Source of the DNA: Octopus vulgaris
Lineage: Eukaryota
Assembly: GCA_951406725.2 (NCBI GenBank)
Contig: OX597819.1
Span: 37,386,001-37,450,000 of the forward strand
Direction: 5' to 3'
Length of the DNA: 64,000 bases
The translations under genes were made by a program, and so were the position numbers. Every line of letters begins with the position of its first letter. The stretch's first letter is position 1. The notes beneath the pieces were generated by a model, which saw only the letters and a program-made list of their open reading frames with translations, did not search any database and was not told the DNA's origin. Of this stretch, positions 1 to 16,200 are shown one piece after another.

Positions 1-490
1 CATATATAGATTTTCAAGCAAAATACATTTGCTGATTTCGAAAATCTGTTCGACAGCAATAATAATTCTCTAAAAGAGATATAGACAGTAACTGCTCGAT
101 AACATAAGGGACTAAAGCCATCTGAATATGGCTAGGGACAGGGCAGGGTGGTGGGGGTGTTACTGTTGCATTTAGCCCCAGGCGAACATCGACATCGCTA
201 GATAGGCTTGACACCGTCACGGTGTCCTTTAACCTGCAAAGGGAGGAGCAGTTACTGTCTATATCTCTTTTAGAGAATTATTATTGCTGTCGAACAGATT
301 TTCGAAATCAGCAAATGTATTTTGCTTGAAAATCTATATATGAATAACCTGCAGAGTGAGATTTCGTCGAGGAAGCGGAGGCCTACCACACGTTGACGAT
401 AGGCAATACACCTTGAAACCATGGTCCGTGTGTGGTTTCCGCTTCATCGGGGAATTATCTCCCTTGCAGGTTAAAGGACACCGTGACGGT
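1..490. mobile_element. Retrozyme-like non-coding element, subfamily A; head-to-head inverted arrangement; may extend left of the window
   Basis: 1-97 is the reverse complement of 246-342, and ~213-245 is the reverse complement of ~459-490. The plus arm contains a long hairpin (345-473) capped by a hammerhead motif. Confidence 0.75.
386..435 (+). ncRNA. Type I hammerhead ribozyme motif (U3 variant)
   Basis: ccacacg-TTGACGA-tagg(caataca)cctt-GAAA-CCATGG-TC-cgtgtgtgg. Stem I cacacg/cgtgtg, stem II agg/cct, palindromic stem III ACCATGGT, GUC cleavage triplet ending at 426. Confidence 0.7.
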
Positions 491-1936
491 ATCAGCCTTC
501 TCCATACGCCAACTTCAGGAGAAGTCCAGAGAGCAGAAAATGCCATTATATATGGCCTTCATTGATCTAACAAAGGCTTTTGACTCGGTAAGCAGAACAG
601 GCCTCTTCATCCTGCTCCAAAAATCGGATGTCCACCAAAGCTGCTGAGGATCATCAAGTCTTTCCATGATGACATGCAAGGCACCATACAGCACAACGGT
701 TCAACATCAGCCGCCTTCCAAATAAAAAACGGGGTAAAGCAAGGTTGTGTCCTCGCTCCTACATTGTTTGGCATCTTCTTCTCGCTCTTACTTTCACATG
801 CCTTTCAGACATCAGACGATGGAGTGTTTCTGCACAGTAGAAGTGACGGGAAACTGTTCAATCTCTCGCGCCTGCGTGCCAAGACCAAAATCAGAAACGT
901 CCTGATCAAGGAGATGTTATTTGCTGATGATGCCGCTCTGGTAACACACACAGAAGAAGCCCTCCAAAGGCTCATTAACTGTTTTGAGCAAGCATGTAAC
1001 GACTTTGGCTTAGCTATCAGCCTTAAGAAGACCAACATCATGGGCCAGGCTACATCGGACATCCCAAACATACATATTGGAGACCACAGATTACAAGAGG
1101 TGGAGAAGTTTACCTATCTGGGCTCTACCGTCACCTACAACCTATCCCATGACGCTGAGCTCAATATACGCATTGGCAAGGCAGCTGCTGCGATGGCCCA
1201 ACTCTCCAAACGGGCTTGGGACAACAATAAGCTGACCAAGACCACGAAAATGAAGATCTACCAGGCATGTGTACTCAGCACTCTACTGTATGGAAGTGAG
1301 ACCCGGACGCTATACACACGCCAAGAGCGTCGCCTAAACATCTTTCACCTGCGCTGCCTCCGAAAAATCCTCCGCATCAAAAGGCAGAATCATATCCCCA
1401 ACAAAGATGTCCTCAGGCAAGCAGGAATACCAAGCATGTTTGCACTCCTCACACAAAGACGTATGAGATGGCTTGGGCATGTTAGCCGTATGAAAGATGG
1501 CAGAATCCCCAAGGACATACTCTACGGAGAGCTTGCTAGGGGTGCTAGGTCTGTGGGTAGACCGATCTTACGTTACAAGGATGTTTGCAAAAGGGACATG
1601 AAGGCCTGCAACATCAATATTAGCGGTTGGGAGGCAGTTGCCGGCAACCGTGGAGAATGGCGACGTACCGTAAAAGAGGGAATACAAAGGAGTGACAGAG
1701 AGAGAGAGGAGAAATGGAAAGAAAGGAAGAGACGTTAACAAGTGACTATGGCACTACAACCAGCCAGGAACAGTCTTCGCTACATTTGCGGTACCTGCCA
1801 GAGGGAGTGTTTGTCCAGGATAGGACTACACAGCCACAGCAGGAAATGTATCAGGACATGAAATATAAAAGCCGGACTAGACTACTTGTGCGCAACTCCA
1901 TTGTCTCCCGAGACAGAAAGGATGCCAACCAACCAA
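491..1936 (+). mobile_element. 5'-truncated RTE-clade LINE (RT domain, C-terminal Zn finger, 3' UTR)
   Basis: RQLQEKSREQKMPLYMAFIDLTKAFDSV, GVKQGCVLAPTLF, LFADD, FTYLGS, WLGHVSRM, ILYGEL. Frameshift near 620. [17 protein letters not shown] lies in another frame at ~1780-1860. Ends in (ccaa)n next to (TA)n. Confidence 0.95.
674..1738 (+). pseudogene. RTE LINE reverse transcriptase fragment (354-aa open segment)
   Basis: ORF track; RT motifs QGCVLAP and FADD; disrupted on both sides. Confidence 0.9.
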
Positions 1937-2045
1937 TATATATTTATATATATATATATATATATATATATATATATATATATATATATATATATATATA
2001 TATATATATATATATATATATATATATATATATATATATATATAT
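1937..2045. repeat. (TA)n microsatellite, representative of many in the window (e.g. 5003-5063, 6857-7182, 7852-8150, 21146-21348, 32896-33062, 35100-35190)
   Basis: Direct inspection. Confidence 0.98.
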
Positions 2046-3516
2046 TCATGCTCGCACGCGAACGCATATATTCAGTCATTTATTGAAGTTTTCCCTTTAC
2101 TTTTTCTTTTTCACCTAGATTCCTCTAAACACAACTTTTTCGCTCTTTGTTCTATAATTACATCTCAGAAATGCAACCCTCTGTAACTAATATGTACCTA
2201 AAAACCTCGATCTATACAAGTTCTACTGAACGAAAGGAAGATTAAATTTGATGAGATTGAGCGATAACTTAGTAATCACTGCAATAGAAAACACGGGACA
2301 AAATACTTGCTGTGTTTTAGTTTCGGCATTTTACGTCCTGAATTCTAATCCGGAGAAGGTTTACGAATGACATCGACACTTCCCTCTTTCATTGATAATG
2401 CCAACAGAACAAAAGCCAAGGCTATAACGCTGTACAAATTTATTTCAGTTTTGTGTGAAATTCTATTTCAATTTTCTATATATTGTAAATTCATTTCATT
2501 ATTTCAGTCATTCACTTTTTCATTCATTCATTCATTCATTCATTCATTCATTCATTCATTCATTCCACTAATAATCTTTGGCAGGGAATAGGAGTCACAA
2601 ATCCCATTATTTCTATCTTTAAAATGTACGGTTTTGAGCCAAGCCAAAAAGAAAATTGCCAATAACTTGGGACTAGTACGCGGAATAACAGTATTTTCAG
2701 TTTGTAGTTTGTTTTCTAAGTTTCATACGGCTCCCGAAATGTAGATTCTTATCTGGAATATATATTACGTCAATACATTTTCTTGCATCTTACAATGGAA
2801 GAAGTACTAAGAAAGTGAAGCGTGGATAAGTGAGGGGGAAAAAAGAGGAGGATTTATATGGTATGGAATAGTGTCAGCGAATGAGAAGAGAATTAAGATC
2901 GAAAAGATAAGACGGTGGGGAGGAGAGGAAAAAACAAAGAAAACGAATCAAATAAAAGTTAAAGAAACGAAGAAAAAAAGAAAAATTAAAATATAACTAC
3001 AATAACGGGTAGATAAACACATACTTATAACTACACACACACATGAGAGAGAGCGGGAAAGAGAGAGAGAGAGACCGTCAGAGAAAGAGAAGGGGTGAGG
3101 AGATAAATTACGTATAGAGAATGGAGATGTGTTAGCTAAGAGATTCATGAGGGTTGTTATAACTATTTTGGCAAATGGACACAAAAATGTAATAGAGGTA
3201 CTACATCAAAAATACTTTCTATATTATAATGTCAGTTCGTGGATGTAAGAGATGTGTAAAGGTAGCCACGAGAAGACAACTCACAGAGCTCTCTAGTAAT
3301 AACAACGTATTTTTATTTTATATCTCGATTGGAGAGCAATGGCGTCGTTGGGTTACGGGTTTCCAATGTGATCACTGTATTTCTGATGGCAGGAGAGTGG
3401 CAAGAGAGTGTCTGCCACTTGGTGTAGAACAAATATTACAAAGGACTTCGGTTTCCTCGTCGACGTTTACATCCTTACCGATCTCGCGCGCCCACTCGCA
3501 CACATGTGCCCACACA

Positions 3517-3672
3517 TATGTATGTATGTACGTACGCATGTATGTATGTATGTATGTATGTATGTATGTATGTAGGTAGGTAGGTAGGTAGGTAGGTAGG
3601 TAGGTAGGTAGATAGGTAGGTAGGTAGATAGGTAGGTAGGTAGATAGGTGGGTAGGTAGGTAAGTATGTATG
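3517..3672. repeat. Compound (TATG)n/(TAGG)n microsatellite
   Basis: Direct inspection. Confidence 0.95.
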
Positions 3673-14835: not shown

Positions 14836-15239
14836 TTATGGGAAAGATAACAACAGATGAATTAGCAAAAATGATCCTGCAAAAAGCTTAATAGCTATAA
14901 ATTTCATTCAAGATGACAGGCGAACAAGTTTTTGCCAGCAGCAAATTATCAGATTGTACAACTGACGAGCCACTGCTGGTGAAACTTCATCTTGCATTTT
15001 TGGTTGAATAAAAAGTATTTAGACTCTAAATCTGTACTTACTCTTACATCCGTTTATGTTTCCCAGTGTTGTTAAAGTCAACTGGTAAATGCTCTCCCAA
15101 TAAGGAGTTCAATTGAAATCAATTCCAACTAAAATCATTAAATAAAAACCATAAAAACCAGCCAAGAGTAAAAATAATCGACAAGAATCAGAAGGTAAAT
15201 TATCAAACTCCAATCTTCCATTGTCTTGACCATAATTAT

Positions 15240-15618
15240 CTATTTCTTTACTACCTACAAGGGGCTAAACACAGAAGGGACAAACAAGGATAGACAAACG
15301 GATTAAGTCGATTACATCGACCCCAGTGCGTAACTGGTACTTAATTTATCGACCTCGAAAGGATGAAAGGCAAAGTCGACCTCAGCGGTATTTGAACACA
15401 GAACGTAGCAGCAGACGAAATACCTATTTCTTTACTACCCACAAGGGGCTACACACAGAGGGGACAAACAAGGACAGACAAACGAATTAAGTCGATTACA
15501 TCGACCCCAGTGCGTAACTGGTACTTAATTTATCGACCCCGAAAGGATGAAAGGCAAAGTTGACCTCGGCGGAATTTGAACTCAGAACGTAACGGCAGAC
15601 GAAATACGGCTACGCATC
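15240..15618 (-). mobile_element. Tandem dimer of SINE family 2
   Basis: Same unit and same junction as 10410-10805. Confidence 0.88.
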
Positions 15619-15736
15619 TTATAAAACTGCTCAGTTATGAAAGGATATAAATAAACAAAGATGTTACTGATTGAGAATAAGTCTTATTCTTCTAAAGAGA
15701 GGAACAAGATCAAGTTGTAAGGAACCATGTTTATAT

Positions 15737-16200
15737 AATAATAGAAATATCATTATTTGTAATTCTCTCTAAAGGAGACTACGGCAGCGGTACTGGATAT
15801 TAATAGTTGGAGCTAATCAACGGCATCATTCGTCCTATTTTTCTGGACCGCTGCCGTAGTCTCCTTTAGAGAGAACTAGAAATAATGATATTTCTATTTT
15901 TGAAAACCAGTGGATGTATTCCACTGAATTTAGGTAAATAATCCTTCGAACAGTCAGTCAGCAACGACGCCTGCTGGGTTCGGCTACTCCACATTGATAA
16001 GAGGCAGACACCTCGAAAGTAGTCTATGGATGCTAGACCAGCAAGGGGAAGCTGCTGACCTCTCCTGTTCGAAGGTTATAATGGACACAGGTTTGTGTGT
16101 CACATAGCTAGCTAGAGGCGATGGCCTCTTGGAGCTAATCAACGGCAGCATTCGTCCTATTTTTCTGGACTGCCATGTTAGCTTGGCGATAACTATTAAT
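15737..16200 (+). mobile_element. Retrozyme-like element, subfamily B, with inverted head and 14-bp TSD
   Basis: TSD aaccatgtttatat at 15723-15736 and 16201-16214; 15739-15792 inverted relative to 15847-15898; 15807-15848 repeated directly at 16129-16170. Confidence 0.8.
15988..16030 (+). ncRNA. Type I hammerhead ribozyme motif, U3-A8 variant
   Basis: tccaca-TTGATAA-gagg(cagaca)cctc-GAAA-GTAG-TC-tatgga, at the apex of the long stem ccttcgaacag...ctgttcgaagg. Confidence 0.7.

Follow-up and report, generated by a model that had tools for sequence, protein, structure and literature searches.

Hammerhead retrozymes of Octopus vulgaris with a changing 3-8 core pair and a probable Penelope-like driver

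How does a short non-coding repeat with an atypical ribozyme core spread through a genome, and does the fold of its RNA matter to that spread? These questions are raised by a 64,000-nt stretch of the Octopus vulgaris genome (assembly GCA_951406725.2, contig OX597819.1, positions 37,386,001 to 37,450,000; hereafter the window), in which an earlier note, made from the sequence alone, had described two strongly diverged hammerhead repeats, here called A and B. We consider it probable that A and B are subfamilies of a type I hammerhead retrozyme of about 360 nt that is copied in trans by a Penelope-like element, with compensatory changes in their folds and a 3-8 core pair that cycles among U-A, U·G and C-G.

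The repeat units are non-coding, 355-361 nt long and arranged head to tail with one hammerhead each. The A unit (361 nt) occurs as partial tandems joined to an inverted arm, which stops, beyond the left edge of the window, at unit position 224 against an (AT)n tract. The B family has a 358-nt unit, and its copy in the window appears to be about 36-39 nt short near 15848. From 2.8 Gb of genome we obtained 1820 first-look candidates for A and 1294 for B; because only 40 of each were scored, both sets lean towards the query. Mean distance to the consensus is 1.2% for A, 4.1% for B and 5.4% for C, an older third subfamily with a canonical consensus core (window 61547-61889), and 174 distinct rods, the long stems that end in the hammerhead, cluster into about 20 groups. 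An open reading frame (ORF) with reverse transcriptase (RT) and GIY-YIG domains was absent from the 360-nt units, and longer spacings between hammerheads were later duplications with unrelated DNA. Hammerhead pairs 1.4-3.6 kb apart were considered as full-length elements and rejected; the two such loci scanned for ORFs were duplications with microsatellites and pieces of long interspersed nuclear elements (LINEs). The placement of A and B as subfamilies of one non-coding hammerhead tandem repeat of about 360 nt, that is, a retrozyme without long terminal repeats (LTRs), is in our judgment largely real. Features are listed in Table 1.

Table 1. Positions of the retrozyme copies, their RNA modules and associated elements (window coordinates unless a locus is named)
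Feature	Position	Strand	Remarks
A inverted arm (unit 33-277)	1..245	-	runs past left edge of window through a second hammerhead
A direct arm (unit 181-361, then 1 to about 68)	246..492	+	cut off by LINE
Penelope-type tail of A (unit 181-224)	246..289	+	between two fixed 3′ ends; predicted stem-loop with module 1
Module 1 of A, inside tail	264-276	+	predicted stem-loop
Module 2 hairpin of A	309..328	+
Rod of A, extended stem I, hammerhead-capped	345..473	+	fold against shuffles, z -5.85
Hammerhead A, type I	387..432	+	core with U3·G8; 10.1-11.1 is U·U; palindromic stem III ACCAUGGU; cleavage predicted after 426
Module 4 hairpin of A	477..493	+	one mismatch at LINE junction
5′-truncated LINE joined to A arm	493..1935	+	ORF 584-1738, RVT_1 E 2.5e-15; then (AT)n; left boundary approximate
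14-bp direct repeat left of B	15723..15736		likely target-site duplication
B inverted arm with tail	15737..15806	-
B direct arm	15807..16200	+
Module 1 hairpin of B, inside tail	15860..15872	+
Module 2 hairpin of B	15908..15926	+
Rod of B, hammerhead-capped	15938..16079	+	fold against shuffles, z -5.35
Hammerhead B, type I	15988..16030	+	U3-A8 core; G-C closing pair
Module 4 hairpin of B	16084..16101	+
14-bp direct repeat right of B	16201..16214
B-related inverted fragment	40070..40285		tail, no hammerhead
Subfamily C, decayed third member	61547..61800	-	hammerhead about 61712-61755; family consensus core CUGAUGA, C3-G8
Opposite arm of C insertion	61816..61889	+	ends in tail against (AT)n
Young intact Penelope-like element	L251-L253 (G000:C10:97804500-97830000), L183		6164-nt unit, tandem array, 1008-codon frame

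Both ribozymes have the type I layout, with three stems around NUGANNA, GAAA and UH and stem I open. The A core UUGACGA (393-399) lies between stem I CACACG/CGUGUG and stem II AGG/CCU, the latter closed by U·U and followed by GAAA; the B core UUGAUAA (15994-16000) is joined to stem II GAGG/CCUC, with a predicted cut after 16024. Rfam gave no hammerhead match at A, B or the related subfamily A0 (window, E up to 1; three 141-nt stretches, up to 10), so the assignment is based on its core motif, the covarying stems and the context. Across subfamilies, denoted here by letters, the 3-8 pair is Watson-Crick in B (U-A) and in C and A0 (C-G), a wobble in A, D and H, and a mismatch in E3. At 10.1-11.1, B and E have G-C, A and A0 have U·U, D has G·U and C has C·A.

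As the earlier note proposed, A and B are diverged subfamilies with a common module order, in which the hammerheads and modules 1, 2 and 4 could all be located and a long rod ends in the hammerhead. Both rods fold far better than shuffled sequence (0/200 shuffles reached either), and the module 2 stem does covary, with three both-side changes between the A and B sequences. Other details needed revision. Module 4 is as described in B; in the direct arm of A (246-493) it reads GACAC-CGTGACG-GTATC rather than ending in GTGTC, at the point where the LINE cuts the arm off, and it is intact in the inverted copy and in the family. The module 1 difference had been read as compensatory; its stem is in fact nearly constant across the family and its loop variable. 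The window's B copy has damage of its own in loop II, in stem III and in stem I, where CAGACA, GAAAG and UAUGGA replace the family's CAAACA/CAACCA, GAAACUAGUC and UGUGGA. Of the stem II loops noted as similar, CAGACA in B is thus private to this copy.

We then asked whether selection acts on RNA structure beyond the ribozyme, as had been suggested. In 16 representative copies, one per subfamily, 94.3% of cells are paired (99% in stem I and 100% in stem II), against 86.4% in shuffles, and 19 of 41 pairs changed on both sides against 9.2 in shuffles (0/500). A branch-wise null on the tree, with B and C removed from the alignment and three A0 units added, gave 10-12 double changes where 1.0 ± 1.0 were expected (maximum 6; 0/2000 simulations). 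The covariation across subfamilies is strong, and pair counts and branch-wise null together support selection on the wider structure. The branch-wise null replaced a comparison of family and private double changes that was confounded by divergence, and the reduced rate of private mutations seen in the core was set aside, since the core pattern itself had served to pick many of the loci. Compensation holds between the closer subfamilies and fails position by position along the A and B rods, where B leaves 22 of the 48 aligned A pairs as they are, breaks 22 and preserves 4 through substitution (26/48 kept); the two rods have a common overall shape with the mid-rod rebuilt. Stem III is self-complementary in all eight forms (seven fully paired with G·U allowed, one with a central mismatch), which is expected of a dimeric ribozyme (PMC4209133).

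Within the monomer, the GUC cut site has a predicted pairing partner in G5-A6-Y7 (15-16 of 16 subfamilies; alignment columns 162-164/191-193), and position 7 switches between C and U at least seven times. If true, this pairing would lock monomers inactive.

The ends of the insertions bear on the copying machinery. The 3′ ends of arms cluster in two zones, at unit positions about 172-184 and 215-233, which take up 20 and 14 of 36 arms in A (34/36; chance 2.9), 19 and 20 of 50 in B (39/50; chance 4.1), 24 and 14 of 47 in D and 10 and 11 of 23 in E3 (chance 2-4 for both). Each zone is used once in 30 of the 34 two-armed loci (A, A2, E, E3, G and H); the other four have one irregular end, and no locus repeats a zone. 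The roughly 45 nt between the fixed ends are predicted to form a stem-loop with module 1, and (AT)n comes after 28/36 A arms and 20/23 E3 arms. In the anole Penelope element, RT starts at two internal sites that bracket the tail, both DNA strands are cut and extended, and ribozyme activity depends on the protein (PMC11167929); the two fixed ends around the octopus tail, each used once, agree with these two start sites. Penelope-like elements also show tandem and inverted structure, partial tandems of more than a unit, a one-sided tail and a microsatellite bias (PMC8557442). The retrozymes are therefore likely copied in trans by a Penelope-like element. The earlier guess that structure serves RT recognition is supported, in the case of module 1, by its position within the tail and so between the fixed insertion ends.

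Which element might be the driver? The candidate is a young, intact Penelope-like element of 6164 nt. Its frame matches RVT_1 (E 0.002) and GIY-YIG (E 0.015), both below the Pfam cut-offs, and falls in Atlas clusters with RT and GIY-YIG at 0.97; no solved structure matched the Penelope ORF. The element stops in (AT)n, 100 nt past its minimal hammerhead, and the 24 hammerheads found in its copies have the cores CCGACGA (19), CUGA (4) and CAGA (1). The (AT)n target and CCGACGA core that it has in common with the retrozymes are suggestive only. The retrozyme units showed no homology to the pseudo-LTR of the 6164-nt family or to the other Penelope-related loci examined (two protein queries), and two Penelope endonuclease queries (at least 150 matches each) gave, in 60 loci and 20 longer stretches, unit-like sequence only as chance neighbours. 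The window itself holds two different Penelope-type endonuclease fragments, at 33419-34591 (-) and 60971-61504 (+), with 15095 and 9074 first-look candidates in the genome. Elsewhere (locus L138, position 317, +), a canonical-core hammerhead with a long stem II lies near an older Penelope endonuclease fragment.

A census of exact cores, which misses decayed copies and subfamilies B and C, shows how far the unusual cores extend. With positions 3 and 8 free and U4 fixed by the pattern, the 56 A cores comprised 55 U3·G8, one U3-A8 and no C3. A separate B census (n=26, position 3 free) gave 24 UUGAUAA and two single-base variants, with U3 in 25. The earlier assignment of U3..G8 to A and U3..A8 to B is thus family-wide (55/56 and 24/26), and U3-A8 is, as had been stated, a published natural variant (PMC3088659). 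A degenerate pattern found 1141 YUGA cores (reversed control 0): 556 U3-A8, 33 C3 (29 C3·A8, 25 of them identical, and 4 C3-G8) and, by subtraction, 552 U3·G8. The C4 version of the pattern found 1200 cores, and all 100 listed were CCGAYGA, with C3...G8 and the flanks of A. This subfamily, A0 (C3-G8 with U4C), is about twenty times commoner than A. Since A0 is C3-G8 and C has canonical CUGAUGA, U3 is not universal. E3, the subfamily with the C3·A8 mismatch, was found at no fewer than 18 distinct loci, its copies 96-100% identical and normal in their ends; a suspected loss of a base at its cut site proved private to one locus. Because C3·A8 has been amplified too, the assumption of an obligatory 3-8 pair loses force.

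To order these states, we built trees without the core columns, and full-unit trees agree. A2a (U3-A8) lies outside A2g (U3·G8), followed by A plus A0 (100/99), with A0 itself monophyletic (99/96). Monophyly of the G8 forms is rejected (p-AU 8e-45), and the minimum changes on the tree are four at position 8, two at position 3 and one at position 4. The A lineage runs UUGAUAA -> UUGAUGA -> UUGACGA, and from its placement in the tree the window's A copy is most simply the wobble state from which A0 would have regained C3-G8; the two differ at roughly 15 of 360 sites, and none of the 33 C3 rows is an A-type C3U4 intermediate. A-to-I editing was considered as an origin for the repeated change from A8 to G; substitutions private to single copies, which leave the masters aside, are strand-symmetric (A>G 14, T>C 10, p 0.42) and so give it no support.

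A0 also differs in array length. There were 3.23 cores per locus in A0 (100 cores, 31 loci, first part of contig 1), 1.47 in A (56, 38), 1.38 in U3-A8 (99 of 100 listed, one A-array row dropped) and 1.38 in C3·A8, and arms with at least three cores made up 8/48, 0/51, 0/89 and 1/26, respectively, with up to nine listed cores in one A0 arm. Of 24 sequencing runs listed, 20 held part of the unit; in the four examined, as contigs only and guessed to be RNA, one contig of 325-390 nt goes round the 361-nt unit with C3 and C4 present (4/4), and the A0 type is the main unit-length contig in each. Two of these contigs measure 390 nt; in one of them the termini overlap by 30 nt, the pattern expected of a closed loop. 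Among the runs listed, those of five organisms have the A unit in common. Changes in common with the best A0 copy number 6/6, 13/14, 14/15 and 15/16. The contigs show which variant prevails in runs guessed to be RNA.

From the observed unit length, tandem and inverted arms, two 3′ ends, (AT)n flanks, covariation, core states and tree, we infer the following cycle. Arrays would be transcribed as multimers, in which hammerheads would dimerise by way of their self-complementary stem III and cleave 3′ of GUC, at a low rate where the core is U3·G8 or C3·A8, and part of the monomers would be ligated into circles. A Penelope RT/GIY-YIG protein would bind the tail stem-loop, nick both strands of (AT)n and prime once at each tail boundary, which yields a two-armed insertion. 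Weak cores may persist as masters because copying likely needs no cleavage, and would so bridge the compensatory step. The regain of C3-G8 by A0 likely raised circle output, giving longer arrays and more copies. A bolder version, in which the ribozyme active site crossed a fitness valley with U3·G8 and C3·A8 as mobile intermediates, and in which A0 regained C3-G8 jointly with U4C because the Penelope protein assists and selects CCGACGA, the core of the active autonomous element, before taking over as a circular form amplified by rolling circle, is one that we hold only tentatively and think rather doubtful.

Several observations count against copying by Penelope and a return to a stronger core. 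The 6164-nt element has no significant sequence in common with the retrozyme units, we found no ORF-bearing element with the retrozyme hammerhead, and B lies mostly outside (AT)n (6/50 arms). The invariance of G5, A6, A9 and GAAAC is partly built into the search patterns, and the structure was derived from the alignment on which the double changes were counted, which favours it. The node that puts A2a outside the G8 group has support of only 93/84, and the tree assumes no recombination between subfamilies. Nor does array length, compared with age uncontrolled, follow the 3-8 pair closely: with a Watson-Crick pair, the longest of 29 C arms is 522 nt and all 26 listed B cores (U3-A8) are single, and long arms exist where that pair is absent, in H (U3·G8, 1069 nt) and E3 (C3·A8, 938 nt). 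A0 also has U4C, which is reported to lower in-vitro activity (PMC3088659), and is therefore perhaps not faster. Its arrays are internally 99.7-100% identical, so the round contigs could come from arrays or DNA.

Might the hammerhead then be a catalytically irrelevant relic, with selection only on the RNA shape bound by Penelope, positions 3, 4 and 8 drifting by transitions, and A0 grown for other causes, for example through a favourable promoter, an active master locus or its young age? The amplified C3·A8 subfamily with its normal ends, the long arms that lack the 3-8 pair and the variation of the 10.1-11.1 pair by subfamily all fit such a relic, as do the anole findings, where ribozyme mutants still inserted in vitro and no RNA-seq reads ended at the cut site (PMC11167929). 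However, stem III has kept its self-complementarity while its sequence changed several times, also on branches leading to the U3·G8 subfamilies; G5, A6, A9, GAAAC and GUC are constant in A, B, C and D, subfamilies recovered through DNA similarity rather than with the pattern; and C3·A8 is rare (29/1141). We therefore judge this explanation unlikely. Decay after insertion of canonical CUGANGA, for instance by CpG loss, is the least credible account of the U3 cores, and we give it almost no weight. C7-G8 is indeed a CpG that is lost in single copies (1/56 in A), and a canonical family exists in C, but with position 3 free U3 is found in 56/56 A and 25/26 B cores, which refutes private decay for both, and the A lineage series runs opposite to CpG decay.

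The units could also be passengers of LINEs, like short interspersed nuclear elements (SINEs), or satellites that grow at the DNA level. The A arm joined to the 3′ part of a LINE that ends at (AT)n, with the unit remainder absent downstream, would fit a LINE, and the lack of common sequence between retrozyme and Penelope-like element speaks for either alternative. Against both stand the fixed 3′ ends, each used once in 30/34 inverted insertions, together with partial tandems and a tail, which are Penelope features (PMC8557442, PMC11167929), and dispersal over many chromosomes with 5′ truncation poorly fits satellite growth alone. We regard these alternatives as highly improbable, and copying in trans by a Penelope-like element as the better account.

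Other features of the window touch on these subjects. The LINE, which we take to be of the RTE type, is fused by its 3′ part to the A arm at unit position about 68-74, with the unit remainder absent beyond (AT)n; the junction may reflect template switching, which would make it a chimera, or else an insertion accompanied by a deletion. Long inverted repeats, 91-96% complementary, lie at 13293-13747 / 14381-14835, 29427-30596 and 36249-36930 and are possibly other Penelope passengers. The first has a stretch like the unit's GGGGCTAAA...CAAC motif and no hammerhead, and beside it, at 14956-15000 (+), is a lone hammerhead-like match with a canonical CUGACGA core that may be chance. The window further contains a 5S rRNA copy (6743-6861, -; 103 bits) adjoining a 325-nt (AT)n tract, a tRNA-like match (43892-43963) and 184-nt dimeric repeats of a common SINE-like family (10412-10779 and 15240-15607), one of them just upstream of B.

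These insertions provide insertion-level evidence on the machinery behind the movement of animal retrozymes, for which the arguments have until now been co-occurrence and homology. They also supply a natural, nearly isogenic series of U3-A8, U3·G8, C3·A8 and C3-G8 with U4C, with copy number and array length as readout, which makes testable how much self-cleavage a retrozyme needs and whether compensatory core change takes a wobble route. CUGANGA/UUGANAA descriptors and Rfam would miss most of the roughly 2400 cores.

How does this system compare with those known? The retrozyme class and the U3-A8 core are already known. Animal non-LTR retrozymes include those of mussel, 350-390 bp repeats that form circular RNA and cleave slowly (Cervera & de la Peña 2020, PMC7229834), and the octopus units resemble such elements in their non-coding monomer of 170-400 nt, type I hammerhead, short palindromic stem III, tandem copies, GC of about 43-50% and strongly folded monomer. 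They differ in occurring mostly as 1-2 units with an inverted arm, with long arrays only in A0, in their fixed non-canonical cores (U3·G8, C3·A8, U4C, and U·U or C·A at 10.1-11.1), and in being known from DNA and contigs rather than as circular RNA. With Penelope elements and their pseudo-LTRs (PMC4209133; Craig 2021, PMC8557442; Frangieh 2024, PMC11167929) they have in common the partial tandem with an inverted 5′-truncated arm, the one-ended tail, the AT-rich targets and a hammerhead upstream of the RT start sites. Unlike Penelope elements, the unit has no ORF and its tail is about 45 nt rather than 30-40 nt; and unlike the minimal Penelope hammerhead, with its long stem II, the octopus ribozyme has a 6-bp stem I and a short stem II. 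Li, Clavereau and Pollet (2026, bioRxiv 10.64898/2026.07.22.740005) concluded from co-occurrence and pseudo-LTR homology that frog retrozymes derive from Penelope. The octopus points to the same driver by an insertion-end footprint, without partner homology; the word "tail" does not occur in their text. Among published cores, U3-A8 is reported in the Cercyon Penelope elements of Schistosoma (Cervera & de la Peña 2014, PMC4209133), and U3-A8, U10.1-U11.1 and U4C are each natural hammerhead variants known as rare single examples (Perreault 2011, PMC3088659). The literature consulted, mostly open-access main texts, contains no natural U3·G8 or C3·A8 cores and no octopus retrozymes, although the 2014 and 2020 supplements could list such. 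The amplified U3·G8 (about 552) and C3·A8 (29) cores and the ordered return to C3-G8 appear to be new: in contrast to the single variants of PMC3088659, the octopus U3·G8 and C3·A8 cores are fixed in amplified subfamilies that form an ordered series.

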